A stretch of 64,000 bases of DNA from Alphaproteobacteria bacterium (GTDB lineage: Bacteria; Pseudomonadota; Alphaproteobacteria; SMXP01): assembly GCA_965248815.1 (NCBI GenBank), contig CBDFKK010000008.1, positions 1,493,720 through 1,557,719 on the forward strand, read 5' to 3'. Each line of letters begins with the position of its first letter. Positions within the stretch are counted from its first letter, which is position 1. The notes under the pieces are model-generated. The model was given only the letters and a program-made list of their open reading frames with translations. It made no database searches and had not been told where the DNA came from. Of the stretch, positions 4,790-36,639 are shown one piece after another. The position numbers and the translations under genes are program-made.

Positions 4790-6301
4790 ATGTCAGTTGC
4801 TGAAGAGACACGAACCAATGTTCAAATGACGGGCCCTTACGACTCGTTTCGTGATTTTATTGCGGCGCTCGAAGCGCGCGGCCGCCTCATCCGAATCAAA
4901 GAGATGGATCAGGATCAATTTGAAGCGACGAGCTTCGCCTACAAACTCATCGAAAAATACGGTTACTACGAAGCCCCGGGATTCGTCATTGAACGGATCA
5001 AAATTGACGGCAAATGGGTCGAAGGACCGTTGTTCGGCAATATGTACGGCGCGTGGGACGTCGATGCCATGATTTTCGGCGTCGAAAACGTCACCAACAA
5101 TTACAACGCCATGTACCACGCCGCGATCGACAAGCTGAAATCAAAGGCGGACCGCAACGGCGCCTGGCCGCTCGTGCCGCCCACCACAACGGACGCCAAG
5201 AACGCGCCGGTGAAAGAAGTCGTCATCACCGGGAAAGATGTCGACATTACGAAATTCCCCTGGTTGCATAACAACCCGGCCGACGTCGGCCGCTATCTCA
5301 ATATGGGCGCGGTGATCATTGACGATCCAGAGCTCGGCCGAAATGTCGGCACCTATCGCTGCCAAATCAAAGACAAGACCAAGATCGGGGTGAACCCGGA
5401 AATCGGTCAGGACGCCTGGCGGATGTTGATGACCGCGCGACGGCAGGGCCGCAAGACGGTTCCCGTCGCCATCGCCCTTGGTGTCGATCCCATCACATTT
5501 TGTTTTAGTGCGACAAAGGCGTGTGGCCCGCGCCAAGACGAGTTAGGGCTCGCCGGCGGCATGCGCGGCAGCCCCGTCGAGCTCGTCAAGTGCGAAACCT
5601 CCGACATTATGGTGCCGGCCAACGCGGAGCTTATCGTCGAAGGCGAAGTGCCGGTCGGCGAAGACGAGCCGGAAGGGCCCTACGGCGAGATGTACGGCTA
5701 TATCGGTCTTGAAAAGCCGCAGAACTTTTTCATGAATATCAAGGCGATCACCCACCGCCACAAGCCGTGGTTTCCCAACGACTTTACCGGTGCGGTTCGC
5801 GGCGCGGTGATGGCGCCGGTCGACGCTATGGGGTTCTTGCGCTTTAAAAAGATGATTTACAATTTGGTCGCGCTGCACACGCCGACCGATGCGGTCGGCT
5901 TTATCATCATCAGCATCGATAAGACACAGCCCGGTGACGGGATCACTGCGGGCCTGCAGGTCGCCGGCAATCTCAACATCGCCAAGATCACTGTCGTCGT
6001 CGACAAGGATGTGGACGTTTACAATTTCCAAGAGGTGATGTCGGCGGTGGGCTCACGCTGGCAGCCCCACCCGGCGAGCGTCATCATCGAACAGACCAAA
6101 GGCATGCGGCTCGACCCGAGCACGCGCAACAGAGGCATGGGCAGCAACATCGTCATCGATGCCACGCGCCAGTTCCCCGAAGAAGGCGGACCGGACGCCT
6201 ATCCGCCGGTCAACCTCACCGCGCTCACCGACGGCGCGCCGGACGCCATGAAGCTCGTCGAATCCAAATGGGACGAGTATCTGAAGGACTGGCAGGGGTA
6301 A
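4790..6301 (+). CDS. UbiD-family (prFMN-dependent) aromatic acid decarboxylase
   Basis: 503 aa. The N-terminal RDFIAALEARGRLIRIKE and the later VPANAELIVEGEV...GPYGEMYGY motifs are typical of UbiD/4-hydroxybenzoate decarboxylases. Confidence 0.8.
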   Translation: MSVAEETRTNVQMTGPYDSFRDFIAALEARGRLIRIKEMDQDQFEATSFAYKLIEKYGYYEAPGFVIERIKIDGKWVEGPLFGNMYGAWDVDAMIFGVENVTNNYNAMYHAAIDKLKSKADRNGAWPLVPPTTTDAKNAPVKEVVITGKDVDITKFPWLHNNPADVGRYLNMGAVIIDDPELGRNVGTYRCQIKDKTKIGVNPEIGQDAWRMLMTARRQGRKTVPVAIALGVDPITFCFSATKACGPRQDELGLAGGMRGSPVELVKCETSDIMVPANAELIVEGEVPVGEDEPEGPYGEMYGYIGLEKPQNFFMNIKAITHRHKPWFPNDFTGAVRGAVMAPVDAMGFLRFKKMIYNLVALHTPTDAVGFIIISIDKTQPGDGITAGLQVAGNLNIAKITVVVDKDVDVYNFQEVMSAVGSRWQPHPASVIIEQTKGMRLDPSTRNRGMGSNIVIDATRQFPEEGGPDAYPPVNLTALTDGAPDAMKLVESKWDEYLKDWQG

Positions 6302-7098: not shown

Positions 7099-8175
7099 CT
7101 AAACCCTCGACCCGAGCCCCGTCGGCGGGGCCGAGATATGTTCGGGGCGTTTTTCGACCCACTCGTAGTCCGGGTTCTCGGGCGGGATGTCCTGCACATA
7201 GGCTTTGGTGACATCGAGCCGCTTAGCATGTTCGGTCATGTCGTCGGGAAGCTCTAAGAACTCGGGCGCGTGCTTTTCCATATAGGCAAGCACTTGCGGA
7301 AAGACGTCGCCGGTGCCCTGCAAGCCCTTATGGCTGAACATGCGGGCAAACAGGATGCCGTCCTCAAAGCCGGAGCCGCCCATGCGCATCCAGGGCCAAA
7401 AGTTCGATTGCCGCGCGAAGCCTGCGATAAAGCGCGACGAGGGCACGTCGCGATCGACCAGCTGGTCGTAATTCATGTTGAACGTAAAATGTTCCGAGGG
7501 CGAAATGCGCGGACCGACGGACGCTTTGGGCCAGCCTTCAGGCTTTACTGGATTTGTGTAGTCGTGGGTGTAGTCCCACTCGAGTAACAAATCGTCGCCG
7601 AAGCGCTGAAACGGCATGAGGAACGGCACCTCGCCGTTCTCATCGGGGAATACCGTCCCTTCGTTCATAAGTGTCGGCACGTCGTCTTTGGTGCCGAGAT
7701 CGAAGCGCGGCATTTGAGTGCCAATGCGCCCGGCATTCATATGATTGTAGAAATGATAGACCTCGACGGTTTCCTCCGTAAACGGATTATCCCAGGTCTC
7801 AAGCACCTCACCCGTCCGCAAATCCGTAAAGAACGCCGTTTCGCGCGAGCGAATACTCAAAAACCCTTCCGGATCGTACTCGCACAGCGTCACTCCGGTA
7901 CCCGCATAGCCGAAGACTGGGATCATGCGCTTGTTGCTGATGCGCCCATACATCATGCCGTGATAGCCGCCGATGACCGGCTCGCCATAGCCGCCCCAGA
8001 TCTTGCCGAAGGCATAGAGATTGTCCTTGGGATCACCGAGATTCAATTTACCGTTTTGCGCGCTCGCCGTTTGGGGCAACATCAGGCCCACAGTACCGGC
8101 AATTGCTGCACCGCCGAGACCCATCAGTGCATCTCGACGGCTGGTCATGAGATCTGAGACAAATAACGATGACAT
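7099..8175 (-). CDS. DUF1838-family protein, Tat-signal (paralog 1 of 3)
   Basis: 358 aa. The twin-arginine signal is SRRDALMGLGGAAIAG. It shares conserved blocks (LETWxNPxTxExVEV, KWP..S.GP) with the ORFs at 8303 and 43554. Confidence 0.55.
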   Translation of the reverse strand: MSSLFVSDLMTSRRDALMGLGGAAIAGTVGLMLPQTASAQNGKLNLGDPKDNLYAFGKIWGGYGEPVIGGYHGMMYGRISNKRMIPVFGYAGTGVTLCEYDPEGFLSIRSRETAFFTDLRTGEVLETWDNPFTEETVEVYHFYNHMNAGRIGTQMPRFDLGTKDDVPTLMNEGTVFPDENGEVPFLMPFQRFGDDLLLEWDYTHDYTNPVKPEGWPKASVGPRISPSEHFTFNMNYDQLVDRDVPSSRFIAGFARQSNFWPWMRMGGSGFEDGILFARMFSHKGLQGTGDVFPQVLAYMEKHAPEFLELPDDMTEHAKRLDVTKAYVQDIPPENPDYEWVEKRPEHISAPPTGLGSRV

Positions 8176-8302: not shown

Positions 8303-9379
8303 GTGTGCAACAGCCGCCTCACAGCTTATGCTCCGGCCAAACGGAATGAATACAGTCAAAACAGGGGAAACATCATGCTTGGATCCGTCAACCTTAAGAA
8401 CATCTCGCGCCGCTCCACTTTATTTGGCCTGGGGGCCGGACTTAGTGCTGGTCTGGGCGCCGGCCTGGGAATGAGCGCCACGCCAGCTCTCGGCGCGTCG
8501 AAACTTCCTTTCGGCAATGCCGATGCCGCCGGGCTCGGTCTTGATTTCTCGAAAGCCGAAGACAATTTGACCGCTTGGGTCAAGCTTGCCTCGAGCCTCG
8601 AAGACGGCGTCGAGACCTGCGGTTATTTTGCCGGCAAACAATTTGCCGTCATCGGCAAACACGAAGTGATCAAGCCGCTGTTTCGCATTAAGGGATTCGG
8701 CATGAGCCGGGTCACAAAGCTGCCGGACGGACGCTATCAAAATCTGCACCGGGAGGTCGTCTATTATTACGACTTGAACGAGGACCGGATCCTCGAGACT
8801 TGGGAGAATCCCTATACGGGTGAGACCGTCGAGGTCTTTAGCACGCACAACGATCCGGTGAATTCACACTACTCGACGAGCTTCAAGCAAACCTTCGGCG
8901 ACCCGGAATCGGGCGTCGAGACGGTCGAGTTTCCGTTCATTCTACCGTGGGAAGTTCACGGCGATCGCGCCGTGTGCTCGTTTGAAGTCAACACGCGTTG
9001 GCCGTCGCCGCTGCCTGCGGACAAATGGCCACGCGAGAATTTTGGCGAGTGGTATCGCACCAGCGAGTATTTCCAAATTCACTCAAGTCTCGCAGAGCTC
9101 AACAATCCGGACATACCGAAAGTGAATTACACTGGCTCATGGCAAAAGGTGGCGCCATGGCATCCCTGGATGTTGATGGACAATGCCGAAGGTGGCCTTT
9201 TGGGCATTACCAGTGTGTTCTCTATGGACAGCACCGACGATCTGCCTCAGAGCGTGCGCGAGTACACTGAAGCAAATTATCCCAAGTACATGCATGCGCC
9301 TGAAGAGTGGACCGAGCCCAACATGGCGACCTGGGAGACCTTCGCCGCCGAGCGCACGCCCGCCCCGGCCAAGATGTAG
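8303..9379 (+). CDS. DUF1838-family protein, Tat-signal (paralog 2; likely start about 8375)
   Basis: It is divergent from paralog 1 across a shared 127-bp intergenic region. The Tat-like motif is ISRRSTLFGLGAG. Shared motifs include ILETWENPYTGETVEVF, DKWPRE and NYTGSWQKVAPWHPWMLM. Confidence 0.55.
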   Translation: MCNSRLTAYAPAKRNEYSQNRGNIMLGSVNLKNISRRSTLFGLGAGLSAGLGAGLGMSATPALGASKLPFGNADAAGLGLDFSKAEDNLTAWVKLASSLEDGVETCGYFAGKQFAVIGKHEVIKPLFRIKGFGMSRVTKLPDGRYQNLHREVVYYYDLNEDRILETWENPYTGETVEVFSTHNDPVNSHYSTSFKQTFGDPESGVETVEFPFILPWEVHGDRAVCSFEVNTRWPSPLPADKWPRENFGEWYRTSEYFQIHSSLAELNNPDIPKVNYTGSWQKVAPWHPWMLMDNAEGGLLGITSVFSMDSTDDLPQSVREYTEANYPKYMHAPEEWTEPNMATWETFAAERTPAPAKM

Positions 9380-10200: not shown

Positions 10201-11822
10201 AGATCATCGTCATTGGCTCGGGTCCGAGCGGTGTTCACTTTGCTCTCTCCGCTTTGCGCAAACGACACAGCGTCGTTATGATTGACGTCGGCCGATCGAA
10301 ACCCCCTGCCGTCTTGCCGGAGAATGACTTTCTCGGCCTCAAACGAAACTTGCCTGATCCAATTTCTTATTTCGCAGGGTCCGACTATAGCGGCCTGACC
10401 ATTCCATCGGCCGATCCAAATGACGAAAGCGAATATTACGGACTGCCACCTTCCAAAAACTATGTTTTCGAGCGGCCGGAAGCATTTTCATATATGGCTG
10501 ACGGACTGACCCCCCTAACGTCCTTCGCCGCAGGCGGGTTGGCAGAAAGTTGGACAGCAGGCAGCTATTCCTTGAATGACGACGAGTTCGCGCAATTTCC
10601 ATTTTGCTATGAGGATATTGAACCATTCTATGAAGAAGTCGCCGCTCGCATTGGCGTGACAGGAGATGAAGACGATTTAGCTGTGCACATGCCGGTCCTA
10701 GACCGCGCATCACCCGCCCTCAGGCTCGACGCCAGCAGCGACGCGTTACTCACCCGTTATGAGCACCGCCGCGATCAGCTCATCGCGAAGCACAAGGCGC
10801 GCATCGGCCGATCGCGCCAGGCTGTGCTGGCCCAAGACTTGGGCGAGCGCCAAGCCTGCACGTATTGTGGGCGATGCATATGGGGATGCCCGAACTGTGC
10901 TCTGTATACACCGTCGCTAACATTGTCGGAATGCCGCAGCCACGCGGCCTTCACCTACATCCCCCACCGCTTTGCCAGCCATTTTAACTTGAGCGCCGAC
11001 GGATCGATTGAAGACGTCGAAGCCTACGCCCTCGACAACGGTCAAAAGGAGCGCCACTGCGGTGATGCCTACGTCTTAGCCTGCGGAACGTTGAGCACGT
11101 CAAATGTAGTTCTTCGCTCGGTCTTTAAGTCTCAGAACGAAATCATTCGATTGCCCGGCCTGATTGACAACCGGCAAGTCTTGGCCCCGTTTCTCAACTT
11201 TGCGATGTTAGGAAAAGACTTCGAGCTGCAATCATACCAATATCACCAACTGGCTATTTGCCTCGAGAGTGAAAGGACAGATCGAAATGTCCACGGACAA
11301 ATTACAACGCTCACGACCGCGACCACGCACCCCATCTTTCAAAGCTTGCCCTTCGACTTGAAATCTGCGATCGGCGTCTTTCGAGAATTACGATCAAGTA
11401 TCGGCGTCGTGAACTTGAATTTTTGCGACTGGCGCCGCGACGACAACTATTTGACCTTGTCGACCAAAGGCCGCGAAAACGAGAATTGGCCCGCCCTGTC
11501 TATAAGATACAGACCTGCTCCGGGCGAAGCGGCGACAATCAAAGAGTCCTTGTCCAGCGTTCGGCACTTTTTTTTCGATCTCAAGGCGCCGCTCATCCCC
11601 GGCATGACTCATATCCGTCCCATGGGTGCCAGCGTTCACTACTCGGGAACGTTGCCTATGTCGCGCGAGCGCGAACCCTGGACCGTCTCAAGAGACTGTC
11701 AGTCCCATGACTTTGAAAATTTGTTTGTGGTGGATGGGGCGGTCATACCGTTTTTGCCGGCGAAAAACTTGACCTTCACGCTGATGGCAAACGCAGCGCG
11801 CGTTGCTGCAACCGTCTTTTAA
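10197..11822 (+). CDS. FAD-dependent oxidoreductase (GMC-oxidoreductase-like C-terminus) carrying an internal CxxCxxCxxxCP ferredoxin-type motif
   Basis: The N-terminal MKIIVIGSGPSGVHFAL is a Rossmann GxGxxG motif. The C-terminal FVVDGAVIPFLPAKNLTFTLMANAARVA resembles GMC_oxred_C. The internal CTYCGRCIWGCPNC is a 4Fe-4S-like signature. Confidence 0.55.
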   Translation: MKIIVIGSGPSGVHFALSALRKRHSVVMIDVGRSKPPAVLPENDFLGLKRNLPDPISYFAGSDYSGLTIPSADPNDESEYYGLPPSKNYVFERPEAFSYMADGLTPLTSFAAGGLAESWTAGSYSLNDDEFAQFPFCYEDIEPFYEEVAARIGVTGDEDDLAVHMPVLDRASPALRLDASSDALLTRYEHRRDQLIAKHKARIGRSRQAVLAQDLGERQACTYCGRCIWGCPNCALYTPSLTLSECRSHAAFTYIPHRFASHFNLSADGSIEDVEAYALDNGQKERHCGDAYVLACGTLSTSNVVLRSVFKSQNEIIRLPGLIDNRQVLAPFLNFAMLGKDFELQSYQYHQLAICLESERTDRNVHGQITTLTTATTHPIFQSLPFDLKSAIGVFRELRSSIGVVNLNFCDWRRDDNYLTLSTKGRENENWPALSIRYRPAPGEAATIKESLSSVRHFFFDLKAPLIPGMTHIRPMGASVHYSGTLPMSREREPWTVSRDCQSHDFENLFVVDGAVIPFLPAKNLTFTLMANAARVAATVF

Positions 11823-12820
11823 GCACCCTTTCGTCCCTGGTGAAGCTCCAGTGTTTCACCATATTCCTCATCTTGCCGCGGCCGACGAATTACATTTTCG
11901 ATGATGTAGAGTGGGCGACTTTTACCTTGCATGTAGATGCGACCCAAATACTCGCCAATGACACCCAGCACAAACAACTGACCGCTGCCCAATATCAACA
12001 CGACCGTCATCAAGGTGGTCCAGCCCTGGATGGCGATCCCAGTCACATAGCTGTGAACCGTATAGCTCATAAAGAAGAGCCCAATGAAGGCGCAGACAAA
12101 TCCTAAATAAGTCGCAAGTCTGAGGGGTAAGATTGAAAAGCCGGTAATGGCGTCAACAGCAAACCGAAACATTTTGCGAAAGGGATATTTTGATTCGCCT
12201 GCAAACCTTTGGTCTCGGTCGTAGAGCAGGGGAACTTGCTCAAATCCGATCCAGCTGATCATCCCGCGAATGAAGCGATGTTGCTCCGGCATTCGATTGA
12301 GTTCATTCAAGGCTCTGCGGCTCATTAGGCGAAAATCACCGGTATCATTCGGAATCCTGATGTCGGTCAGGCGATTCAAGAGCCGGTAGAACATGCGCGC
12401 GGAAAATCTCTTGAAGGGGGTTTCACCTTGTCGCTCTTGCCGCTGTCCGTAGACGACATCAGCCCCATTATCCATGAGCTTCATCATATCGGTCAGCAGC
12501 TCGGGCGGGTCCTGCAAATCAGCATCAATGATCAAGATGCGATCGCCCGTGCAGATGTTTAGACCGGCGGTCAGCGCCAACTGATGACCATGATTTCTGG
12601 ACAGAAAGACCCCTACTATATGTGGATCGTCATCAAACAGACTGCGGATAATCGATTGGGTCTCGTCCGTGGAACCATCGTCAACCAGTACGATTTCATA
12701 GTCGTCGCCGGCTTCCAACTGGCAGATATCGGTCAAACGACGGTACAGCTCCGCCAAAGACTCCTGTTCGTTATAACAGGGCGAAACAATTGAAATTTTT
12801 GGCGTGGCCGCAATTGACAT
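11819..12820 (-). CDS. Family-2 glycosyltransferase, polyprenyl-phosphate sugar transferase type (ArnC/GtrB/DPM1-like)
   Basis: IVSPCYNEQESL...IVLVDDGSTD...DADLQDPPEL are canonical GT2 motifs. Two C-terminal TM helices fit the ArnC/GtrB layout. Confidence 0.8.
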   Translation of the reverse strand: MSIAATPKISIVSPCYNEQESLAELYRRLTDICQLEAGDDYEIVLVDDGSTDETQSIIRSLFDDDPHIVGVFLSRNHGHQLALTAGLNICTGDRILIIDADLQDPPELLTDMMKLMDNGADVVYGQRQERQGETPFKRFSARMFYRLLNRLTDIRIPNDTGDFRLMSRRALNELNRMPEQHRFIRGMISWIGFEQVPLLYDRDQRFAGESKYPFRKMFRFAVDAITGFSILPLRLATYLGFVCAFIGLFFMSYTVHSYVTGIAIQGWTTLMTVVLILGSGQLFVLGVIGEYLGRIYMQGKSRPLYIIENVIRRPRQDEEYGETLELHQGRKGA

Positions 12821-15092: not shown

Positions 15093-16253
15093 TTGAACGA
15101 TCAGGCTTGCGATATTTGCGATTCATCCCACGTTCAGCGTTTGAGTTCGACAATGTTGACAGTTGCAACCCGGCTAAACTTATTCAGCCAAGAGCTCAGA
15201 CATGACAACTTTCAGTTTGTTATGCTGCTGCTAGTCTTTTTGGTATCCGGCTTGTTGACTTTCGCGGGACTCACCACAATACCCAGGGTTGCCTCTTTAT
15301 ATTCTCTAGCGGAGGCGCCCAACCCTCACTTCATCGCCGACTTCGCCATTCTGCTATATGTCTGGACACCATTAGTTTCAATGGGCACGATCATCTTCAT
15401 GATGGCGCCCGGCATGGCGCTCTCCCTGGCGTTCGTAAAAACCGAGGCTTTTACAACTTGGCTCATCTCAAGTTTCGCCATCAGCCTCATTCTCGTAAGC
15501 GCTACCGCAGCAGTCATCCAAGAACTTATAGAAGAGCCGTTAGACGGCATCTCATTCTTTAGTACCGTTTCTTTGCTTATCGCCTTATCTGTTTGCTGCC
15601 TTGTCGCTGCAAATTTGCGCAATGCAAAGCCTCAGAGGTTCCACTGGCGTCAGTTTTCCGATCAACAACAGACAATTGTTTTTCTTCTGCTGGGACCAAT
15701 TTTCATTCTTATCGCACTTTCGCCCAAATTTTATTGGGAAAACTTTAATGGTGACGGCGCCCATACCTTCGAAGCGGCTCGCCTCTTGCTGAATATACCG
15801 CTTCCTTTTTTTGAGGCTGCCGCAGGTGGCACTGCGACTTTTCCTGGAATGACTAGTTTTCTTTTTATATATCCTGCCTCTTGGTTCGTGCGGCTTTTTG
15901 GCGAAATTGAATACGCAGTTCGACTGCCCTTGCTTCTCTATTTGCCTCTTATTTATGCACTTGTGTCGGCACTTGTTCAGCACGGCCGGCCGTTTCGACA
16001 GAATGTCATTCGAGATCTGCTTATATGGGGGGCACTGTCAGTATACACCTTAGCGCTTGGCTACAGCGCAACTTACAATCCATTTTTCGCCGATATCGCG
16101 CTCCCGGCGACGCAAGACACTCTTTTGATGGTGTGTTTTCTCAGCTTTGTCTTGTTCAGAGGTGGTTCGGTTTGTTTGAACAACTTTCGGACTGCGGATA
16201 AGTGGATTTCAGCCCCTGTTATGCCGCGACCGGGATTGGTTGCAGCACGTTGA
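15093..16253 (+). CDS. Polytopic membrane protein of unknown function; its 3' end is displaced by the IS3-family insertion
   Basis: 386-aa ORF with many predicted TM helices. The reading frame enters the IS at 16195. Removing the IS plus one copy of ACTG restores a 3' end terminating at TGA 17480-17482. Confidence 0.4.
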   Translation: MNDQACDICDSSHVQRLSSTMLTVATRLNLFSQELRHDNFQFVMLLLVFLVSGLLTFAGLTTIPRVASLYSLAEAPNPHFIADFAILLYVWTPLVSMGTIIFMMAPGMALSLAFVKTEAFTTWLISSFAISLILVSATAAVIQELIEEPLDGISFFSTVSLLIALSVCCLVAANLRNAKPQRFHWRQFSDQQQTIVFLLLGPIFILIALSPKFYWENFNGDGAHTFEAARLLLNIPLPFFEAAAGGTATFPGMTSFLFIYPASWFVRLFGEIEYAVRLPLLLYLPLIYALVSALVQHGRPFRQNVIRDLLIWGALSVYTLALGYSATYNPFFADIALPATQDTLLMVCFLSFVLFRGGSVCLNNFRTADKWISAPVMPRPGLVAAR

Positions 16254-17049
16254 AGTAAGCCTGATCGGGTGTCTGGCGGTCAAGCGATGAATGCGGTCTC
16301 TTGGTGTTATAAAAGACCAAATATTTGCCGAGGGCGGCTCGGGCTTGTGGAACATTGCCATAGGCATGCAGATAGACCTCCTCGTATTTGACCGTGCGCC
16401 ACAGCCGTTCAACAAAGACATTGTCCCGCCACGCTCCCTTGCCATCCATGCTGATGGCGATTTCAGCATCCTTCAGGATTTGTGTGAAAGCGATGGAGGT
16501 AAACTGCGAGCCCTGATCGGTGTTGAAGATGTCCGGCTTACCGTAACGGGCCAGTGCTTCTTCAACGGCTTCAATGCAAAAGTCTGCTTCCAGTGTGATA
16601 GAGAGCCGCCAGGACAGGACACGCCGGCTGAACCAGTCAACCACTGCGGCCAGATAAACAAAGCCCCGTGCCATTGGAATGTAGGTGATATCCATCGCCC
16701 AGACCTGATTGGGTTGGGTGACCGGCAGCTTACGCAACAGATAGGGATAGATTTTGTGGCCCGGTGCAGGCTTGGACGTGTTCGGGCGGCGATAAATAGC
16801 CTCAAGCCCCATACGCTTCATCAGTGTTGTGACGTGCAGGCGGCCAACCTTGTATCCTTCACCAAGCAATAGTCCCTGCAGCATCCTGCTGCCTGCAAAG
16901 GGATAGTCGAGATGCAATTCATCAATCCGGCGCATCAGTGCCAGATCACCGACCGATACGGGACGGGGCTGATAATAGACGCTGCCCCGGCTGATCTTGA
17001 GCGCCTTGGCCTGACGGCTGAGCGAGAGTTTATGTTTGCGGTCGATCAT
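16219..17049 (-). CDS. IS3-family transposase OrfB (DDE integrase core)
   Basis: 276 aa with the rve-type core ...WAMDITYIP...NTDQGSQFTS... Confidence 0.8.
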   Translation of the reverse strand: MIDRKHKLSLSRQAKALKISRGSVYYQPRPVSVGDLALMRRIDELHLDYPFAGSRMLQGLLLGEGYKVGRLHVTTLMKRMGLEAIYRRPNTSKPAPGHKIYPYLLRKLPVTQPNQVWAMDITYIPMARGFVYLAAVVDWFSRRVLSWRLSITLEADFCIEAVEEALARYGKPDIFNTDQGSQFTSIAFTQILKDAEIAISMDGKGAWRDNVFVERLWRTVKYEEVYLHAYGNVPQARAALGKYLVFYNTKRPHSSLDRQTPDQAYFNVLQPIPVAA

Positions 17050-17357
17050 TTTCTTGCGCTCGGCAATCCCGCCTTGGTGAGCGCATCGCCTAAAAAATCA
17101 TTCTCAAGCGTCAGCTCCCCAATCTTGGCATGGAGCCTCTTCACATCAACACGGGGTGCAGGCAGCGGTGATTTACCCTCCCGCCCAAAAACACCCGCTG
17201 CACCCTCAAGGAGCTGATCTTTCCATTGCTTGATCTGGTTAGGATGAACATCAAACTGCTGAGCGAGTTCTCCCAATGTCTGCTCACCGCGAACGGCCGC
17301 AAGGGCCACCTTCGACTTGAACGCAGGTGTATGATTGCGACGTGGTCGTCTTGCCAT
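17046..17357 (-). CDS. IS3-family transposase OrfA (HTH/leucine zipper); likely start at MARRPRR
   Basis: NHTPAFKSKVALAAVRGEQTLGELAQQFDVHPNQIKQWKDQLL is a Transposase_8-like HTH. The track ORF extends to 17408. Confidence 0.7.
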   Translation of the reverse strand: MARRPRRNHTPAFKSKVALAAVRGEQTLGELAQQFDVHPNQIKQWKDQLLEGAAGVFGREGKSPLPAPRVDVKRLHAKIGELTLENDFLGDALTKAGLPSARK

Positions 17358-17508
17358 AGTGGATCTCCTGTTGCCGGCGATCATGCCGCCTACAGGCCAA
17401 AATTCCACTTATCTCAACTGTGCAGATTTCCCGAGCCACTTCTAAGGCGATTCTTATAGAGATTTTGACAATTCAGTACTGAAATGGAGCGAACCTCTAT
17501 TTCGCAAA

Positions 17509-19482
17509 TTGGTACCATCGAATTATCAATTTAAGAGCCCCACACATTCTTATACGGGTTCGCCATTGGTTTGGAACTACTATGCGCATAAACCGAAATC
17601 GCCGAACCAGCATATCAACTACATCATTCAAAATTCTGCTCAAAGCGAACCGCTTAGTGGAATGCTGATAAACTCATCTAACGGCTATGATCTATACGTC
17701 CTTGATGAAGAACTTTTGAAAGGACATCAAACAAAAATCTTGCCAACTCCGGCCGGTGCAGAGATCTACAGCACACCATCTGAGATCTTATGGTCGACCG
17801 GTTGGAGTCTACACGGACGAGCAGTGTACGACCTAATCTCGATCTTAAAGTCAATAACTCCCGAGTAGACCTGGACAAGTCGCAAATACACAAAGTCATT
17901 TAAGTGGTTTCTACTCTTAAACATTGCCCTGTTTATTGTTGGCATCCTAATTGCCGCTAGATGGATTACTGCAAGCGGCTGGGAACAAGTTCGTGAAATA
18001 GTTTTGGATATACGGCCAGTCTATTTTGTTGCCTTACTATTGTTTTTGAGTTGGTACATTTTTCTAAAATTTTTGCGTTGGCAATTCTTATTGCGCCAAG
18101 CGGAAATTGTTGTCCCCATTCGGTCGAATCTTTCGATCTTTTTGGCGTCACTTGTGGGAACGGCAACGCCAGCCTACATCGGAGAACTTGTTAGAAGTAT
18201 TTTTATGCAAAGACGCTTTGGGACGCCAATACTTCTTTCGGCACCACTCATTATCATCGAGCGCATCTTTGACGTCATGACGCTGTCGATCCTGGGCTTG
18301 TTATTTGTTGATGTCGCGTGGTTGAGAGTAATCCTTGGTGCCACCGCATTGGCTTCATACTCATTATTTTTCTTTTCGGCCTACTTCGCTGGATTCGCTG
18401 ACGGACCGCTGACTCAGATTAGTCGGTTGCGGGACGCAGATGTGCAAATCAAGGTTGGAGTTTTTTCGTTGGCAATTTGGGTGCCCACTGCAGTGATTTT
18501 GACCGTTGCGGCAATGAATTACCAAATTTGAATACATCCGCTTTCTAGCATTGGTGTTTTTAGCGCCTCAACGATAACTGGTGCAATGACTCTTATGCCC
18601 GCCGGTATCGCGACAGTCGGAAGCGCGTCCATCATTAGTCTCCAGCAACTCGGTTTAGGGCTGGATCAAAGTGTTGCCATCGTAACGCTTGTGAGATTCT
18701 CAACAGTTGCGATTCTCCTGATGGTCAGTTTTTGCTTTCTGATCCGCGAAATGATAATCGCGCAAACAACCAACAATGAGAGATCGGATGTTCATTTCGA
18801 CGCAATTGCATCTGAATATAAGAACCAATTCGCCGAGCATGTTTGGGACAATCTTATTGAAAGAAAGATTCAGCTCATAATTGAAGCGTTGTCAAAATCT
18901 TCGCAGCAGGCCGGCAACGGGCTAGATCTCGGATGCGGGCTAGGTCGCCAATGCATGGAAATGGGGAATCGCGGCTATGACGTAATTGGTATCGATGTTT
19001 CCCTTGGGCTCTTAACTGTGGCGCGTAAGAAAGGCGCAATAGTCGTGCTTGGAGATGCCAAGACGCTTCCATTTGAAGATAATAGTTTGGAGTTTGTATA
19101 TTCGATTGGTGTCTTACACCACTTGCCAGACAAGGCGACGCAAAAACAAGTGTGTAATGAAGTATTCCGGATTCTGAAGCCTGGCGGCTTATTCATTATC
19201 CACGAGACCAATCCGATGAATCCATTTTTCAAGTTCTACATGAGCTATATATTTCCTCTGCTGAAGTCAATTGATGAAGGCACTGAAAAATGGATCCATC
19301 CTGATGAGTGGCAGAATTTCCAAGGGACGAATCTGGTGGAAAGGCGATTCTTCACTTTCATGCCCGATTTCATACCAAAATTCCTGATGCCTCCATTTCT
19401 TTCGCTTCAAATAAAACTTGAGGGCAGCCGATACAATAATTATTCAGTGCATTATATGGCCGTTGTTCAAAAAGAAATCTGA
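17509..19482 (+). pseudogene. Single 1974-nt reading frame for an N-domain + flippase-like (LPG_synthase_TM / UPF0104-like) membrane domain + class I SAM methyltransferase, interrupted by in-frame TAG (17866-17868) and TGA (18529-18531)
   Basis: The track ORFs 17509-17868, 18004-18531 and 18586-19482 are all in frame 1 with no other stops between them. The flippase-like domain spans the TGA: TM helices lie upstream, and the conserved LMPAGIATVGSAS...LVRF block lies just downstream. The C-terminus has methyltransferase motif I LDLGCGLGRQ. GC is only about 40%. Confidence 0.5.
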
Positions 19483-19703: not shown

Positions 19704-21863
19704 TTACGGAATTGAAGGTACGCGCCAGATTATTGCGCGATCATCTGCAAAGACTTTTTGAACTCTCGCATTGTTGGTCAACAGATCATATTGGGGCGGC
19801 CAGCGGCTCATGCTCCACGTTGTCACAAGTACATATTCAACATCGCTTGACGCTAGATTTTTCACAAACTGGTCGCTCGAAACTTGAGGAGAAAAGCGAA
19901 ACCAGTCGTCACCCTCGTTTCGCCAATCACTCCACCAGCCCTCCGCCTCCTCACGCCATCTCTCATGTAGCGGTCTTAGAAGAGTTCCATCGTCATCAAT
20001 GGCAACCGGTATGTGCTGAAGACTGCGCCCAAAAATTGGATAGTACTTGGTATACATATGGGGATCCGACATGATGAATGTGATCCGACTACCGCCCGGC
20101 AGACTCTCAACCGCCTTGACAACAGGCCCTAAAGCTTTTTCATCGCTCCCCTCGAAAAATACCTCTGTCTTATAGTCTTTCAACACTGGATAGCTGAAGA
20201 ACAACGCGGCACTTACCACTAGAAGGAGAACGGCCGAGCCAAAAAGTGGTGAAAAATGGATCGCTATTTTTCTAGGCATAATCAAGCTCAGAGTGAGAAT
20301 CCCACTCGCGATAAACAAAAATTTCATATCGACTAAGAGTGTTCCAACAAATGCAATACAACAGTACTGTGCCACTCTGTTTTGAGCCGTTAAGAAAAAA
20401 AGAAGAACGCCCATCAACACAGCTGCACTTAGCCGACGGATTTCGGGGATGAAGTCAGCATAGGGGCGGTTTCCACCTGCGAAAAACGGCTGGAACGGAT
20501 ACAGCAGAATGAGTACGACAATGATAGCCAGGATAAGAAGCTTTAGGTCTAGTGTACTACTTTCATCTGTTGCAGTTTGATAACCTGTTTCAAAGTATCG
20601 CTTCTTAATGTCAAACATGACAAGAATAACTCCCGCGACTGCTATCACGCCCGGGAGTTGAGTTGGCTCTACTATTGACCGATACCACTTTCTGATATTC
20701 ACCAAATCACTGAACCAGTGATCCATCCAGAAAAACAGCGATGTGCGACTTATGGCTTCGCGGTCAAATGGGCCGTCAAAAAATAGTACTTCCGCGGGGA
20801 AAAACGGATTGCCCGTCGCAATCAAATTCCGGAAGTACCAAACGCCTCCGGTTAGTGAGACCGCTGCGAAGCCTATGGCAAGAGCTACTAGGAAATTTCC
20901 AAGTTCAGCTCTTTTGAAAAAAATGACGCCCCAGCCCATGAACAAGAAAACAACTGAATCCAAATATGAAGCCTTAAAACCGAGCACTAAACCCGCTGCT
21001 ATTGAGCTAAATATATAGTTGGCCCACAGATCTTTTTGATCAATAGAGTCGCGCGTTGACAACGCAAGAAACGCTAAGGAGCACATAAACAGGGACGCAG
21101 CCGCAGCACTTGTAGCGCTGAAAGTAGACATCTGCCATAAATAGAGTGGTGAGGCCACACATACGAATGCCCCCGCTACACTTTGTAGACTATTATTTGT
21201 GACTCGATGGACAATCAAATAAATTGATAGTGCGGCCAAGGGTAGCCAGATGAGCGACGTAAGGCTGACAAAAGTGTCGTCCGAATACGGCAACATAAAC
21301 CAAGCCACGACGAGTTCCGAAGAAATTGGAAAATAAGCTTGATAGGTGAAGTTTGTATAGTTGAGGCTGCCGCTTGTAACGATTTTTGCTGGTATCGCGG
21401 CATGATAGGCAAGCTCGTCCCATCCAACAGTCCAGTTTGGAATGGCCTTCAGAATTGCAGTCTGGACCAAGAAGACGACCAAAAATGAAATTATCGAAAT
21501 TTGAAGAAATTTTCCATAGAGATCGCTGCTTTGATGGAACTCAATCGTTTTCCAATTGAGCAAAGCAGCCAATGACAATTGCTTAGATGGACTTGGAAGC
21601 AGAATTACAATTCCAAGAATGATTACGGAAGCAATGAGTACTGAGGAAGGCGCGAACACTCCAAAGTATGCCAATACAAGTGATTCCGTGTGCACAAGAA
21701 AAATAAACAACAACAAGGTGGAAAGGCACGCGACTACTTTGTTCTTATCATCTCCCAGGAATGATCGCAGCAAAATGGCCGATGCAAGGATAGAGGCGTT
21801 GGACAAAACAAAGACTATTGTGCCCGAGAACCCAGACGCCAAAGTGAATAAAGTATCCGTCAT
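19704..21863 (-). CDS. Large polytopic membrane protein with C-terminal soluble domain; GT-C-like (ArnT/PMT-like) glycosyltransferase candidate
   Basis: 719 aa with more than 12 predicted TM helices followed by a roughly 170-aa hydrophilic C-terminal domain. It lies in the low-GC (about 40%) island. The family call rests on architecture only. Confidence 0.3.
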   Translation of the reverse strand: MTDTLFTLASGFSGTIVFVLSNASILASAILLRSFLGDDKNKVVACLSTLLLFIFLVHTESLVLAYFGVFAPSSVLIASVIILGIVILLPSPSKQLSLAALLNWKTIEFHQSSDLYGKFLQISIISFLVVFLVQTAILKAIPNWTVGWDELAYHAAIPAKIVTSGSLNYTNFTYQAYFPISSELVVAWFMLPYSDDTFVSLTSLIWLPLAALSIYLIVHRVTNNSLQSVAGAFVCVASPLYLWQMSTFSATSAAAASLFMCSLAFLALSTRDSIDQKDLWANYIFSSIAAGLVLGFKASYLDSVVFLFMGWGVIFFKRAELGNFLVALAIGFAAVSLTGGVWYFRNLIATGNPFFPAEVLFFDGPFDREAISRTSLFFWMDHWFSDLVNIRKWYRSIVEPTQLPGVIAVAGVILVMFDIKKRYFETGYQTATDESSTLDLKLLILAIIVVLILLYPFQPFFAGGNRPYADFIPEIRRLSAAVLMGVLLFFLTAQNRVAQYCCIAFVGTLLVDMKFLFIASGILTLSLIMPRKIAIHFSPLFGSAVLLLVVSAALFFSYPVLKDYKTEVFFEGSDEKALGPVVKAVESLPGGSRITFIMSDPHMYTKYYPIFGRSLQHIPVAIDDDGTLLRPLHERWREEAEGWWSDWRNEGDDWFRFSPQVSSDQFVKNLASSDVEYVLVTTWSMSRWPPQYDLLTNNARVQKVFADDRAIIWRVPSIP

Positions 21864-22458: not shown

Positions 22459-23246
22459 TTGATAACGCAAATTGGAATTGCGACAATTGCGGACCAATGT
22501 ATGGGTAGCCCTGCAAATCCCAGCATCGATGACGATCAATTGACCTATGCCTTTAAGGTGCTTGAGGAAAACCAAGACGCACGTTGGACGTTTCTTTTCT
22601 TGCATCAGCCCTTGTGGAATTTCGAAGATGCAAAGAATTGGCAGGCACTGGAAGACGAGCTGAGATCTCGGAAATATACAGCCTTTGCCGGTCATACTCA
22701 CACTTACAAGTATGATACAAGCGACGATGAGCAGAGCGATCACATTACTTTAGGAACGACTGGCGGAACTTCTCCATTGCGAGGAGAGGTCTATGGCGCA
22801 TTCGATCACGTCACCTGGGTTACGGCAAAGAAAGATGGGCCTGTTATAGCCAATCTCTCTCTCGAAGGAATAACGGACAAATACATTACGAGCCCCACAT
22901 TTGCTGCGACCTTCGAAGAAGCCAAGATCTTTCGCCCAGCTTTGTGGCAAACAGATGAGTCAATAGGTGTGGGGTCAGAAGGCGAGATTGAGCTGACGAT
23001 TGTAAATCCGTTCGAAGCCGCCCTTGACTACGAATTCGAAAGTCTTGCCGGTCCGGACTATCACGTTCTGTCTGAGCTCCCGTCAGGACAACTCGAACCG
23101 CAAGCTCAGAAAACAGAGGTCATTCGTGTACGGATTGCCGAAGACGAGCGCAAGCCGCTATTTTTCACTGCGCTGACTGAAACAAAGCTCAATGACCAAA
23201 AGACGGCACAATGGCGTACGCAAATCGGCTTTCTGCCTGAGCCGCA
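22459..23246 (+). pseudogene. Calcineurin-like metallophosphoesterase fragment (N-terminus missing; 3' end abuts truncated IS copy A)
   Basis: Contains FLFLHQPLW and AGHTHTY (GHxH) motifs. The N-terminal metal-binding motifs are absent, because a stop lies immediately upstream of the TTG at 22459. The track ORF runs 25 nt into the IS. Confidence 0.45.
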
Positions 23247-24177
23247 GTTTAATCCTTTCTCTTTGCAATAGAATAGTTTGGCCGCGCCCGAAGTAGACGT
23301 CGGCAGGCGTGAGGTTCTTCAGGCTCTCGTGATATCGCTGGTGGTTGTAGTGGCCGACGAAGTCTTCGATCTGCGCTTCCAGGTCGCCAGGCAGATAATA
23401 GTTTTGCAGCAAGATGCGGTTCTTGAGCGTCTGATGCCAACGCTCAATTTTGCCTTGCGTCTGCGGATGATAAGGCGCACCGCGTACATGCTTCATGCCT
23501 TGATCATCCATCCAGTCAGCAAGATCGCCAGCAATATAAGACGGGCCATTGTCGGACAGCAGGCGCGGCTTGTGAACGACATTAACTTGATCGAGCCCGG
23601 ATTCGGCGAGAGCTGCTTCCAGCGTTTCGGTAACGTCCTCAACCCTCATCGTGGTGCAGAGTTTCCACGCAATGATATAGCGCGAGAAGTCATCCAGGAT
23701 CGTCGACAGGTAAAACCAGCCCCAGCCGATGACCTTGAGATAGGTGAAGTCTGTCTGCCACATTTGATTTGGCGCCGTGGTCTTGTCTGTAAACTCGTCA
23801 GCCGCCTTGATGACAACAAAGGCTGGGCTGGTGATCAGATCCAGAGCCTTGAGCAGGCGATACACCGAAGCTTCAGATACGAAGTAGCCTTGCGTATCGG
23901 TGAACCTGACAGCCAGCTCGCGCGGCGACAACTCAGGCTCTTCAAGCGCTAGATCAACGATCTTGTCTCGAACGTCATCGGGAATACGGTTCCATACCCG
24001 TCCCGGCTTTGGAGACCGATCTTCCAGCGCTTCCACACCGCCAGTTTGATACTGATCGTACCAGCGATAGAATGTTGTCCGTGGAATGCCGAGTGTATCC
24101 AGCGTGCGTTTAACTGGCAGATGTGATTGCTCAACCAGTCCGATGATCTCGGCCTTCTCGGATGCAGGATATCTCAT
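23247..24177 (-). CDS. IS3-family transposase OrfB, copy A (3' end lost; the track ORF reads through into flank to 23158)
   Basis: N-terminal HTH (RYPASEKAEIIGLVEQSHLPVKRTLDTLGIPRTTFYRWYDQY) plus DDE rve core. The C-terminus differs from copies B and C because the IS is truncated. Confidence 0.75.
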
Positions 24178-24548
24178 TCGATATCCTCCCCATCCCCGAT
24201 CATGCTTTTTTTCAGAAGGCGCAGTTCCAACGCTTGTTCGGCAACGACTTCCTTGAGGTCTTGCGCTTCGCGCCGTAAGTCCTTCACCTCACCAGTATTA
24301 GCGGCCCGCGCCGTATCGCCTGCCAGCCGCTTCTTGCCAGCTTCAAGAAACTCCTTCGACCAGGTGTAATACATGCCCTGAGCGATGCCTTCCTGACGGC
24401 AAAGCTCGGCAATGCTGTCTTCGCCGCGAAGTCCGGCAAGCACAATCCGTATCTTCTCTTCAGCTGAATAGCGTTTGCGCGTCCAGCGGCGAATATCCTT
24501 GACTGTACGTTCCGCAGCTTCTTGATGGCGCACTGTTTTGTCTCTCAT
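24174..24548 (-). CDS. IS3-family transposase OrfA, copy A
   Basis: 124 aa. YSAEEKIRIVLAGLRGEDSIAELCRQEGIAQGMYYTWSKEF is an IS3 OrfA HTH. It overlaps OrfB by ATGA, and a GAAAAAAAG heptamer lies near its 3' end. Confidence 0.8.
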   Translation of the reverse strand: MRDKTVRHQEAAERTVKDIRRWTRKRYSAEEKIRIVLAGLRGEDSIAELCRQEGIAQGMYYTWSKEFLEAGKKRLAGDTARAANTGEVKDLRREAQDLKEVVAEQALELRLLKKSMIGDGEDIE

Positions 24549-24634
24549 CGTCCACTCCTCTCGTGTGACGATGGGCCAAAAACTCTCCCTTACGCAATTC
24601 CCTCAATCTGTCCCATGAGTGCTGACGCCGGACA

Positions 24635-30945: not shown

Positions 30946-31082
30946 CTCCCTCATCGCAATTAGTTAGCGCAGTCATACCTGTCTACAACAACGAGAGGTA
31001 TATTTCGGACGCCATCGAAAGCGTGCTCGCCCAGGACTACTCACATTTCGAATTGATCGTCGTGGACGACGGCTCCACTGAT
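30942..31082 (+). pseudogene. Family-2 glycosyltransferase N-terminal fragment (47 codons) ending at the IS copy B junction
   Basis: [47 protein letters not shown] is the classic GT2 N-terminus. The frame runs into the IS at 31083, and there is no continuation beyond the IS. Confidence 0.65.
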
Positions 31083-31156
31083 TGTCCGTCGTCAGATAAA
31101 TTGGAACAGATTTCGATTTGAGCAAGCTGAGTCTTTGGCTCATCTGTTGTTTCAAT

Positions 31157-32137
31157 TTAAGCAGCGGCTTTGCGGTGTTGCAAGCGCCGGTGTTCGATTG
31201 TTTTTCGTTTAATCCTTTCTCTTTGCAATAGAATAGTTTGGCCGCGCCCGAAGTAGACGTCGGCAGGCGTGAGGTTCTTCAGGCTCTCGTGATATCGCTG
31301 GTGGTTGTAGTGGCCGACGAAGTCTTCGATCTGCGCTTCCAGGTCGCCAGGCAGATAATAGTTTTGCAGCAAGATGCGGTTCTTGAGCGTCTGATGCCAA
31401 CGCTCAATTTTGCCTTGCGTCTGCGGATGATAAGGCGCACCGCGTACATGCTTCATGCCTTGATCATCCATCCAGTCAGCAAGATCGCCAGCAATATAAG
31501 ACGGGCCATTGTCGGACAGCAGGCGCGGCTTGTGAACGACATTAACTTGATCGAGCCCGGATTCGGCGAGAGCTGCTTCCAGCGTTTCGGTAACGTCCTC
31601 AACCCTCATCGTGGTGCAGAGTTTCCACGCAATGATATAGCGCGAGAAGTCATCCAGGATCGTCGACAGGTAAAACCAGCCCCAGCCGATGACCTTGAGA
31701 TAGGTGAAGTCTGTCTGCCACATTTGATTTGGCGCCGTGGTCTTGTCTGTAAACTCGTCAGCCGCCTTGATGACAACAAAGGCTGGGCTGGTGATCAGAT
31801 CCAGAGCCTTGAGCAGGCGATACACCGAAGCTTCAGATACGAAGTAGCCTTGCGTATCGGTGAACCTGACAGCCAGCTCGCGCGGCGACAACTCAGGCTC
31901 TTCAAGCGCTAGATCAACGATCTTGTCTCGAACGTCATCGGGAATACGGTTCCATACCCGTCCCGGCTTTGGAGACCGATCTTCCAGCGCTTCCACACCG
32001 CCAGTTTGATACTGATCGTACCAGCGATAGAATGTTGTCCGTGGAATGCCGAGTGTATCCAGCGTGCGTTTAACTGGCAGATGTGATTGCTCAACCAGTC
32101 CGATGATCTCGGCCTTCTCGGATGCAGGATATCTCAT
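31157..32137 (-). CDS. IS3-family transposase OrfB, copy B (complete, 326 aa)
   Basis: Identical to copy A over the shared part. The C-terminus ...RKTIEHRRLQHRKAAA matches copy C. Confidence 0.85.
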   Translation of the reverse strand: MRYPASEKAEIIGLVEQSHLPVKRTLDTLGIPRTTFYRWYDQYQTGGVEALEDRSPKPGRVWNRIPDDVRDKIVDLALEEPELSPRELAVRFTDTQGYFVSEASVYRLLKALDLITSPAFVVIKAADEFTDKTTAPNQMWQTDFTYLKVIGWGWFYLSTILDDFSRYIIAWKLCTTMRVEDVTETLEAALAESGLDQVNVVHKPRLLSDNGPSYIAGDLADWMDDQGMKHVRGAPYHPQTQGKIERWHQTLKNRILLQNYYLPGDLEAQIEDFVGHYNHQRYHESLKNLTPADVYFGRGQTILLQRERIKRKTIEHRRLQHRKAAA

Positions 32138-32508
32138 TCGATATCCTCCCCATCCCCGATCATGCTTTTTTTCAGAAGGCGCAGTTCCAACGCTTGTTCG
32201 GCAACGACTTCCTTGAGGTCTTGCGCTTCGCGCCGTAAGTCCTTCACCTCACCAGTATTAGCGGCCCGCGCCGTATCGCCTGCCAGCCGCTTCTTGCCAG
32301 CTTCAAGAAACTCCTTCGACCAGGTGTAATACATGCCCTGAGCGATGCCTTCCTGACGGCAAAGCTCGGCAATGCTGTCTTCGCCGCGAAGTCCGGCAAG
32401 CACAATCCGTATCTTCTCTTCAGCTGAATAGCGTTTGCGCGTCCAGCGGCGAATATCCTTGACTGTACGTTCCGCAGCTTCTTGATGGCGCACTGTTTTG
32501 TCTCTCAT
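32134..32508 (-). CDS. IS3-family transposase OrfA, copy B
   Basis: Identical to the copy A OrfA. Confidence 0.85.
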   Translation of the reverse strand: MRDKTVRHQEAAERTVKDIRRWTRKRYSAEEKIRIVLAGLRGEDSIAELCRQEGIAQGMYYTWSKEFLEAGKKRLAGDTARAANTGEVKDLRREAQDLKEVVAEQALELRLLKKSMIGDGEDIE

Positions 32509-32594
32509 CGTCCACTCCTCTCGTGTGACGATGGGCCAAAAACTCTCCCTTACGCAATTCCCTCAATCTGTCCCATGAGTGCTGACGCCGGACA

Positions 32595-33834
32595 GATAAA
32601 AACCTAAGATGAGATAGAGGATCGTGCTCTTGCCAGCGCCGTTGGGCCCAATGATCGCCACCTTCGCATGTGGGCTTATGTCCAAATTGACGTTGTCAAG
32701 AATCTGCTGCCCTCCATAGCCAAAGGAAACACCAGCAAGTGAAACGGCGCCATCGAAGGAAATCTGCTGCGTGCCGTTGTAAGGCTCAAGTTCATCCGTT
32801 TTGGCAAGATTACGCAGAGTAATGAGAGACTCGTTTCCTGTAATAATGGAAGGCAAGGCGCGTATCGCCGAATTTGCATAGCCATTCAAGAGACCGGCAG
32901 CTACGTAAAAAGATAAAAGTTCGCCGATGGTCATGCTGCCTGTGGCAACCGCAGCGCCTCCCACGACCAGTATTACGATTCCTGCAAATCCCGTCACGGT
33001 GGTTTGCACTTGATTCATGATCGCATAGCTAAACGCCATTTTCTCGCCAGTTGCGCGAAGTTGGTCAATTTGTTCAGACTGACGACTGAGCTCTTCTCTC
33101 TCGAAGGACTGAATCTTCGTCAAATCCATATGCTTCAAAACGAACTGGATACCTTTGCTAAATCGCTCAAAGGATCTTTGGAAAACATAGACATTCTGCT
33201 TGGCAAGCTGGCTGGTTAGACGCGCCGCAAATAACAGAAGTGGCAAAATTAATAGACTGACCAAAAGCAAGAGCCAGTTCAAAAAAATAAGCACCACAAA
33301 CAAGGCAAGGCTTGAGAAAACCGAAGGAAGGAGACTCGTCATGAGCCCATTGCTCATGTTGTCGACGCGCTCCGTATCTTGAACGATGCGTGCATGAATG
33401 GTGTTTCGATCCATGCGGGTATGACTGTCCCTTGAAAGCTTGTATAGGACGTCGAGTAGGTCGCACCGAAGCTCCTTGATAGCACCTTTGATGACTTTCA
33501 AGTTTGCCCTGCGTAGCCAGAGCGAAATCCCGCTATTGAGAAATCGAATGACAAACACGCCGGCGCCGACATAGACCAGCAGCAGAATGTCGCCATTCGG
33601 AATAGCATCATCAAATTCCACTTTAATGAAATAAAGAATAGGTAAGACCAAAAGCGACTGTGCAGATGCAATTAATCCGTACGCACCAAGCTTTTTTTCC
33701 CGACCTTGGAAGTATCGCGCGAAATATTTCCAAGCATCGAGGTCGAAAAGCTCTTTGTTGTCGTTATCTGGCGGTGCGTCCGCCAAATCCGGCGCCACGA
33801 CGTTATCTATCACTCTAGAAATCGATTTCAGCAC
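32595..33834 (-). pseudogene. ABC exporter (fused TMD-NBD, MsbA/McjD-like), truncated just after Walker A by the IS copy B junction
   Basis: Six-TM exporter domain followed by VAIIGPNGAGKSTILYLILGFY (Walker A). The Q-loop, ABC signature and Walker B are absent. The last 11 track residues are IS-derived. Confidence 0.65.
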
Positions 33835-35955: not shown

Positions 35956-36639
35956 CGAAGTAGGCTATCGGCAATCTAGATGGGCCAGGCTCGGACTAAT
36001 GTCTATCTCCGTTTTGCCGCCCAATAGCGACGCCTCGCATTCAAAATGAGCTTCTTGAATCTGTTTTCGCGCCAAGTCGCCACGCTTTCACGGGCCCATT
36101 CCAGCTTGTCGAGTTCAGTCAATGCTTCCAATACATCGTCGGGATTCTTAAATCGATCTAAAATCGTTGACGTGTTTTGCTTTTTGAATGATGGAAAATC
36201 GATTTCGAAATTTCGAACGCCAATAAATCTAAAAAGATCGCTTACAGTTTTTCTAGTCGCCAAATCAGAATATTCAATCTTAAGGATCGTGTTTTTGGCA
36301 CAGTTCTCGATCTGTTGTTCAACTGACGTATATTGCGCGGTCATTGAATCAATGTATTTTACAAATGCTTCCTTCTTAAATGACACTTTGACTTGACCAT
36401 TGGTAGACTGATCGACCATCAGCCACTCTTGAGTTTTGCTACCGATTGTTTGAGAGGAATATTGAGCAAGCAGATTCCGACGAGAAAGAATGATTTTCTT
36501 TATGTCTTGTGCGGTCAGGCAATGGTGCAATGCCTGGGGATCATGTGTGACCTGTCTGACATCAGCGCCTGTGGGACAGATGGAGTTGATTGTGTAACGG
36601 AGGATTTCTGGCTCATCGTCGTGACCGAAGGGAACGCAG

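Follow-up and report, generated by a model that had tools for sequence, protein, structure and literature searches.

What does a long bacterial reading frame encode when only two stop codons interrupt it? We addressed this question for positions 17509 to 19482 of a 64,000-nucleotide (nt) stretch of contig CBDFKK010000008.1, from an alphaproteobacterial genome; the whole stretch is referred to below as the window. The original prediction treated the region as one gene with three parts, an N-terminal domain of unknown family, a flippase-like membrane domain and a methyltransferase, broken by an in-frame TAG and an in-frame TGA. It considered recent pseudogenization of a horizontally acquired gene, a sequencing or assembly problem and, as the least likely option, recoding. 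Our analysis indicates that the stretch very probably holds the remains of two adjacent envelope genes, here named A and B, that form a decaying module, and that it is not a single gene, a recoded gene or a three-part protein. No full-length product is possible and the module is a pair of pseudogenes; among the options raised earlier, pseudogenization fits best. In the course of events that we propose, about 212 central codons of gene A would have been replaced by an insertion sequence (IS) of the IS3 family, and gene B would have been damaged twice, by a nonsense TGA that falls in a loop of its membrane domain and probably derives from a TGG (Trp) codon, and by a one-base frame change at the junction with gene A that would have left it without an in-frame start codon. 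Genes A and B now lie in one frame because the frame at their junction changed, and gene B has no full-length product because of the TGA and the missing start.

Coding content of the open frame

Translation of frame 1 from 17509 to 19482 (658 codons) yielded internal stops only at TAG 17866-17868 and TGA 18529-18531, exactly where the original prediction had placed them, with a final stop at TGA 19480-19482. Frame 1 contains the three open reading frames (ORFs) 17509-17868, 18004-18531 and 18586-19482. A random sequence of this base composition would have about 36 stops in 657 codons, and two or fewer with a probability of about 2e-13; in the same stretch, each of the other five frames has 26 to 39 stops. 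The small number of stops compared with the 36 or so expected indicates that the open frame is a real coding sequence. Its guanine-plus-cytosine (GC) content, earlier put at about 40%, is 44.4%, and that of the surrounding genome is 52-55%.

A search with the read-through product returned 40 intact homologues of 507-570 amino acids (aa), all of which combine PF03706 with a methyltransferase; the best is 47% identical. These proteins cover only the last ~77-80% of the query and, in the alignment, their N-termini lie about 8-13 codons 3' of the TAG position. Since the homologues start after the TAG, the first 119 codons are not part of gene B. At the other end of the frame, intact gene B homologues also terminate where TGA 19480-19482 lies.

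The 119 codons that had been described as an unknown N-domain of the same gene proved to belong to a separate family of about 690 aa that is encoded upstream. When the ORF at 15093-16154 was joined to 17446-17868, the reading frame was kept, and over 150 homologues were found for the joined product, about 690 aa long and without Pfam domains. We built a profile hidden Markov model (HMM) from 106 of these homologues and found that it matches the window in two pieces: 15204-16157 corresponds to positions 14-329 (387 bits) and 17449-17865 to positions 542-679 (95 bits, E=5e-31). The 212 positions between them (330-541) are missing exactly at the IS site. In the alignment, the C-terminal blocks SYGGSPLVWNYYAH, INYV.Q and PTPAGS of the gene A family are all present in the fragment at 17447-17868. 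The 5' fragment has a counterpart in the public protein collection: P0041, a protein of 366 aa from the same contig, is a chimeric ORF (window 15153-16253) in which the first 334 residues derive from gene A and the last 32 from the end of the IS3 element.

The element that separates the two fragments carries HTH_Tnp_1 in its first ORF and rve, rve_3 and HTH_21 in its second, and these two ORFs overlap. Across about 1290 nt, it shares 76% DNA identity with annotated transposase elements of the IS3 family from Rhizobium, Sinorhizobium and Agrobacterium plasmids. Its ends (~16155 and ~17446) were set by alignment to a Rhizobium copy; imperfect terminal repeats are present at ~16156 and ~17446, and the frame-1 ORF opens exactly at the end of the element. 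A target-site duplication was looked for at the two ends and none was seen. The element shares with the IS3 family its two overlapping ORFs, the order of HTH_Tnp_1 and rve and its DNA identity to annotated members, but differs in that it has no target-site duplication and that about 636 base pairs (bp) of its target are missing. The lack of a duplication, together with the loss of about 636 bp of gene A at the insertion site, suggests an IS-associated (adjacent) deletion.

Searches of Pfam, NCBIfam and PDB detected no sequence related to gene A, and a search of its profile against PDB sequences was likewise empty; a match was obtained by fold comparison alone. The predicted structure of the family is a multi-helix membrane fold that can be superimposed on ArnT, PMT or STT3, and the family has a conserved W-E-N-F-N-G-D-G-A-H block. 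From this confidently predicted GT-C fold, we assign gene A as a putative membrane glycosyltransferase. Its closest relatives, by predicted fold only, are ArnT and other GT-C enzymes (PMT, STT3/PglB and ALG); compared with these, gene A of the window lacks about 212 central residues.

The TAG at 17866-17868 belongs to gene A, and the earlier view of it as a break within the flippase-methyltransferase gene does not hold. Several intact gene A homologues, three of which use TAG, stop 0-2 codons past HMM position 679, and the TAG of the window may therefore be gene A's own stop, at or near its native end. We also considered a gene A tail that continues in another frame, in which VDLDKSQIHKVI is followed by the stop TAA 17901-17903. 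Comparison with the family consensus IDMDPILDRLGV gave only four similar residues, which is not significant, and this candidate was rejected.

Gene B, its family and its lesions

When the TGA was read as Trp, PF03706 matched gene B in one stretch (63.2 bits against a gathering score of 33.4; profile positions 2-300 of 302, residues 23-285); the N-terminal half alone scored 56.1 bits over profile positions 2-167. The flippase-like domain thus spans the TGA, as had been predicted, and the block LMPAGIATVGSAS that was reported 3' of this stop was confirmed and matches family-invariant residues. PF08241 was recovered over its whole length (80 bits, cut-off 21.2, profile positions 1-95 of 95), and D473, G475, C476 and G477 of the GLDLGCGLG motif are invariant in the alignment. 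An HMM of the gene B family, built from 39 sequences, aligned as one domain over positions 6-529 of 537 (681 bits). Before its decay, gene B would have encoded a protein of about 530 aa, with the MprF-type flippase-like domain at the N-terminus and the methyltransferase at the C-terminus. The profile searches that had been suggested for the read-through product therefore gave matches to both PF03706 and Methyltransf_11, but the first of its three pieces had no Pfam match.

PF03706 is the flippase domain of MprF, and its fusions to methyltransferases are known from the literature. The flippase-methyltransferase architecture, which had been called unusual, was found in 139 stretches of species-representative genomes and is listed in the literature: the PplT-methyltransferase fusion is among the rarer PplT fusions (bioRxiv 10.1101/2022.03.11.483950). 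A literature search found no experimentally characterized member of this family, and a scan of contigs from named genomes, with a single protein as query, found no close relative. PDB profile searches and Foldseek pointed to generic class I methyltransferases that act on small molecules and lipids. Among the top 50 Foldseek matches listed for the fusion model there were methyltransferases only; MprF was not recovered, and the flippase assignment is accordingly based on matches to Pfam and TIGR profiles. Through PF03706, this membrane domain shows homology to the one in MprF (a lysyl-phosphatidylglycerol synthase with a flippase), and in both proteins a lipid-modifying enzyme is fused to a translocating domain. 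However, the fused enzyme belongs to the class I methyltransferases and is not an aminoacyl-phosphatidylglycerol synthase. The domain of the latter (DUF2156 / PF09924) was not found in the Pfam scans, and the MprF profile NF033480 matched the homologue P0001 only weakly (E=6e-6, 24.9 bits against a cut-off of 600). Gene B was rejected as an MprF on these two grounds.

The TGA at 18529-18531 falls in a column that is variable among 119 homologues (Pro in 24, Ser in 22, Glu in 14, Trp in nine and Cys in none). Because the three closest relatives (L008, P0001 and P0002) have Trp at this position, a TGG to TGA transition is its simplest and likely origin. The corresponding residue is W214 of P0001, which is placed by an AlphaFold2 model (predicted local distance difference test score 88.9) in a loop, residues 210-216, between membrane helices.

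The second lesion became apparent by comparison with other genomes. A scan of species-representative genomes gave 139 matching stretches; 80 loci were retrieved from these, and both profiles were mapped onto their stop-to-stop ORFs. Gene B is a single ORF in 80 of the 80 loci. Gene A lies directly upstream of it in 27, never in the same ORF and with a frame offset of 2 in every case. At these 27 junctions the stop of gene A and the start of gene B overlap by 4 nt (16 loci) or 1 nt (four loci) or are separated by 2 nt (six loci) or 8 nt (one locus). Four metagenome loci with intact homologues are arranged similarly, with a gene A member of 672-718 aa directly upstream that overlaps gene B or lies 2 nt from it. 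Orthologs with three separate genes and independent starts would, by its own terms, have refuted the original prediction; the loci come close to this, with separate genes, but two of them rather than three.

The spacing between position 679 of the gene A HMM and position 6 of the gene B HMM is 2 modulo 3 in all 27 loci; in the window it is 42 nt, or 0 modulo 3. Inspection of the codons from 17869 to 18003 found no in-frame ATG, GTG or TTG. The shift from 2 to 0 modulo 3 accounts for both the shared frame with gene A and the lack of an in-frame start in gene B. Dropping one G from GTGG at 17904-17907 would restore an in-frame GTG start and, with it, the spacing of the family.

The window copy of gene B has the domain order and full-length homology of the PplT-methyltransferase family but differs from it in its premature TGA and its lack of an in-frame start. 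With the TGA at 18529-18531 and no start in 17869-18003, it is not the single ORF that family members are, and it is a pseudogene of this family rather than a working member. Its inactivation is recent, since of the 67 columns without variation among 19 homologues it keeps 64, and the others show two R-to-K changes and one T-to-L change. The public protein collection contains P0041 and P0161, which flank the locus on the same contig, but none of the three gene B fragments, a pattern suggesting that gene B already has the status of a pseudogene in the deposited annotation. The features of the locus are collected in Table 1.

Table 1. Coordinates and strands of the features at the gene A-gene B locus
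Feature	Position in window	Strand	Description
Gene A 5' fragment	15153..16154	+	N-terminal part of a ~690-aa membrane family without Pfam domain; predicted GT-C glycosyltransferase fold
IS3-family insertion sequence	16155..17446	-	orfA 17046-17408 and orfB 16219-17049, both on the minus strand; identified by Pfam and DNA identity
Gene A 3' fragment	17447..17868	+	The "N-domain" of the original prediction plus 21 codons back to the IS end; stop TAG 17866-17868
Remodelled A/B junction	17869..17907	+	No in-frame gene B start; GTG 17904-17906 follows TAA 17901-17903 and is shifted by one base from the gene B frame
Gene B pseudogene	17908..19482	+	Flippase-like (PplT / LPG_synthase_TM) domain and class I S-adenosylmethionine (SAM) methyltransferase; stop TGA 19480-19482
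Flippase-like transmembrane domain	17935..18723	+	PF03706 / TIGR00374, cut by the TGA; identified by Pfam
Premature TGA in gene B	18529..18531	+	Likely a former Trp codon (TGG)
Class I SAM methyltransferase core	18922..19200	+	Methyltransf_11 (PF08241), motif I GLDLGCGLG

Weighing the alternatives

Several other accounts of the locus have to be set against decay of two genes. The model of one tripartite gene with two nonsense mutations draws on the three pieces that share a frame with only two stops in 658 codons, and we now consider it scarcely tenable: the N-terminal piece is the C-terminus of gene A (HMM positions 542-679), the N-terminal half of gene A lies upstream of the IS, and none of the 27 loci that have both genes carries them in one ORF or one frame. 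Recoding, in which the TGA would be translated as selenocysteine, by read-through as Trp or under an alternative code and a full-length protein would be made, also strikes us as extremely improbable. UGA is the leakiest of the stop codons and terminates weakly when the next base is A; the Trp found at the TGA column in the closest homologues would suit read-through as well. However, even read-through leaves gene B without an in-frame start. An alternative code with TGA or TAG as sense codons was not supported, since TAG (16), TAA (16) and TGA (eight) all serve as terminators among the 40 ORFs of the window that are 250 codons or longer, and the proper end of gene B is itself a TGA, as in its homologues. 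Selenocysteine was rejected: Cys is found in none of the 119 homologues at this column, in a search for a fold resembling a selenocysteine insertion sequence, the 81-nt segment that surrounds and follows the TGA was no more stably folded than its shuffled versions (z=-1.1), and Rfam had no match in the window. Stop usage, folding and the homologue column all agree with the low rank that recoding had been given at the outset. The variant in which the TGA is read as Trp and translation begins at a non-canonical start codon, so that a working flippase-methyltransferase is still made, appears very unlikely to us.

An error in sequencing or assembly would leave gene B intact and make consensus errors of both the TGA and the junction change. 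This would fit the 64 of 67 invariant residues and the full-length match of 681 bits, and one G less in GTGG at 17904-17907 would give both a GTG start in frame and the 2 modulo 3 spacing of the 27 relatives. We nevertheless judge it unlikely. Two independent errors would be required, and the TGA is a substitution outside homopolymers, an uncommon kind of error in a finished 3.2-Mb contig. Moreover, gene A is certainly destroyed by the IS and the loss of 212 codons, so gene B is expected to lose selection, and other genes of the window are likewise cut by IS copies. A functional split gene is a further candidate, in which the 298-aa ORF that begins at ATG 18586 (18586-19482) and comprises the last helices and a complete Methyltransf_11 domain would be expressed as a membrane-anchored methyltransferase. 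No sequence resembling a Shine-Dalgarno motif was present 5' of 18586, however, nor was there a promoter-like site upstream; the fusion is whole in all 80 retrieved loci, its GT-C partner gene is destroyed in the window, and the public collection lists no protein that corresponds to this 298-aa ORF. We give this possibility very little credence.

Some observations weigh against the decay of two genes as we describe it. A base-calling error at 18530/18531 or a one-base insertion or deletion error near 17904-17907 may underlie one of the lesions. The TAG may be the native stop of gene A or a nonsense mutation about 12 codons early. No close orthologue was found, the best being 47% identical, and the near-perfect retention of invariant residues in gene B would also fit a functional gene. 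Finally, the pathway proposed below takes both its substrate and its sequence of steps from analogy. With these points taken into account, we favor routine IS-driven and mutational decay of genes A and B, and the locus should be annotated as two pseudogenes and not as a recoded or tripartite gene.

The intact pair and the setting of the locus

In the homologue loci, the neighboring genes encode GT2 glycosyltransferases, PMT_2 proteins, sulfatase-type transferases and sugar-nucleotide enzymes. On the model of MprF and the Arn pathway, we infer a function for the intact pair that would proceed in three steps. The methyltransferase would modify a lipid-linked substrate at the cytoplasmic face, probably a polyprenyl-phosphate sugar and possibly a phospholipid head group; the fused flippase-like domain would then move the product to the outer leaflet; and the translationally coupled GT-C enzyme would transfer it to an envelope acceptor. 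The pair seems to constitute an undescribed pathway ("modify, flip, transfer") that would deliver a methylated lipid-linked sugar or lipid. Intact pairs are present in at least 27 of the species-representative genomes retrieved, with the stop of one gene and the start of the other nearly always overlapping or within 2 nt, and they offer a modest lead for experiments.

The gene A-gene B family is found mainly in Gemmatimonadota, Planctomycetota, Acidobacteriota, Chloroflexota and Myxococcota. A distant gene B (L087) occurs in the cultivable Pyxidicoccus fallax DSM 14698. In the window, the region from about 14.9 to 23 kb has a GC content of 44-48%, compared with 52-55% in its flanks, and the aldehyde dehydrogenase encoded in the flank shares 70-73% identity with proteins from Parvularculaceae, Rhizomicrobium and Hyphococcus. 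By these sequence comparisons the host would be an alphaproteobacterium without close sequenced relatives. Because a low-GC island with IS copies lies between alphaproteobacterial flanks, whereas the family resides mainly in other phyla, we consider that the module was probably acquired horizontally, into a low-GC, IS-rich island of an alphaproteobacterial chromosome, and then decayed. The earlier suggestion of horizontal acquisition is accordingly plausible. Short direct repeats around the locus were matches at chance level only, a scan of the window for transfer RNAs found none, and promoter and terminator matches were at background level.

A second IS, with rve and helix-turn-helix domains, is present in three copies (~23120-24560, ~31080-32520 and ~36630-38065), two of which match exactly over 300 nt according to a repeat finder; the third is inverted and 82% identical. 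Together with the IS3 element at 16155-17446, this makes at least four IS in 64 kb. On the minus strand at 32563-33834 lies an ORF for an ATP-binding cassette (ABC) transporter in which just the first 35 of the 137 ATPase-domain positions are left. This ORF ends beside the IS copy at 31.1-32.5 kb and was probably truncated by it. A 270-aa ORF without an assigned family (22459-23271, plus strand) runs into the IS copy near 23.1 kb and may be a truncated gene of the island.

The low-GC island also contains an intact ORF for a 719-aa multi-pass membrane protein (19704-21863, minus strand), convergent with gene B. It had no match in Pfam, NCBIfam or PDB sequences and is unlike gene A, the PMT_2 neighbors and the proteins of the homologue loci. 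It has a WDELAYH motif, which we take to be reminiscent of GT-C loop motifs. At 11819-12820 on the minus strand, 2.3 kb from the island and in DNA of normal GC content, lies a GT2 glycosyltransferase that resembles the polyprenyl-phosphate sugar synthases PgfS and ArnC, below their cut-offs.

Stop usage in the window is a separate observation: as a terminator of long ORFs, TAG equals TAA (16 each, against eight for TGA), a high share of TAG for a bacterium of about 53% GC. Elsewhere in the window, two paralogues of the UbiD family of decarboxylases (4790-6301 and 45801-47264) share a 60-nt stretch at 77% identity, and a divergent pair of DUF1838 genes occupies 7099-8175 (minus strand) and 8303-9379 (plus strand).

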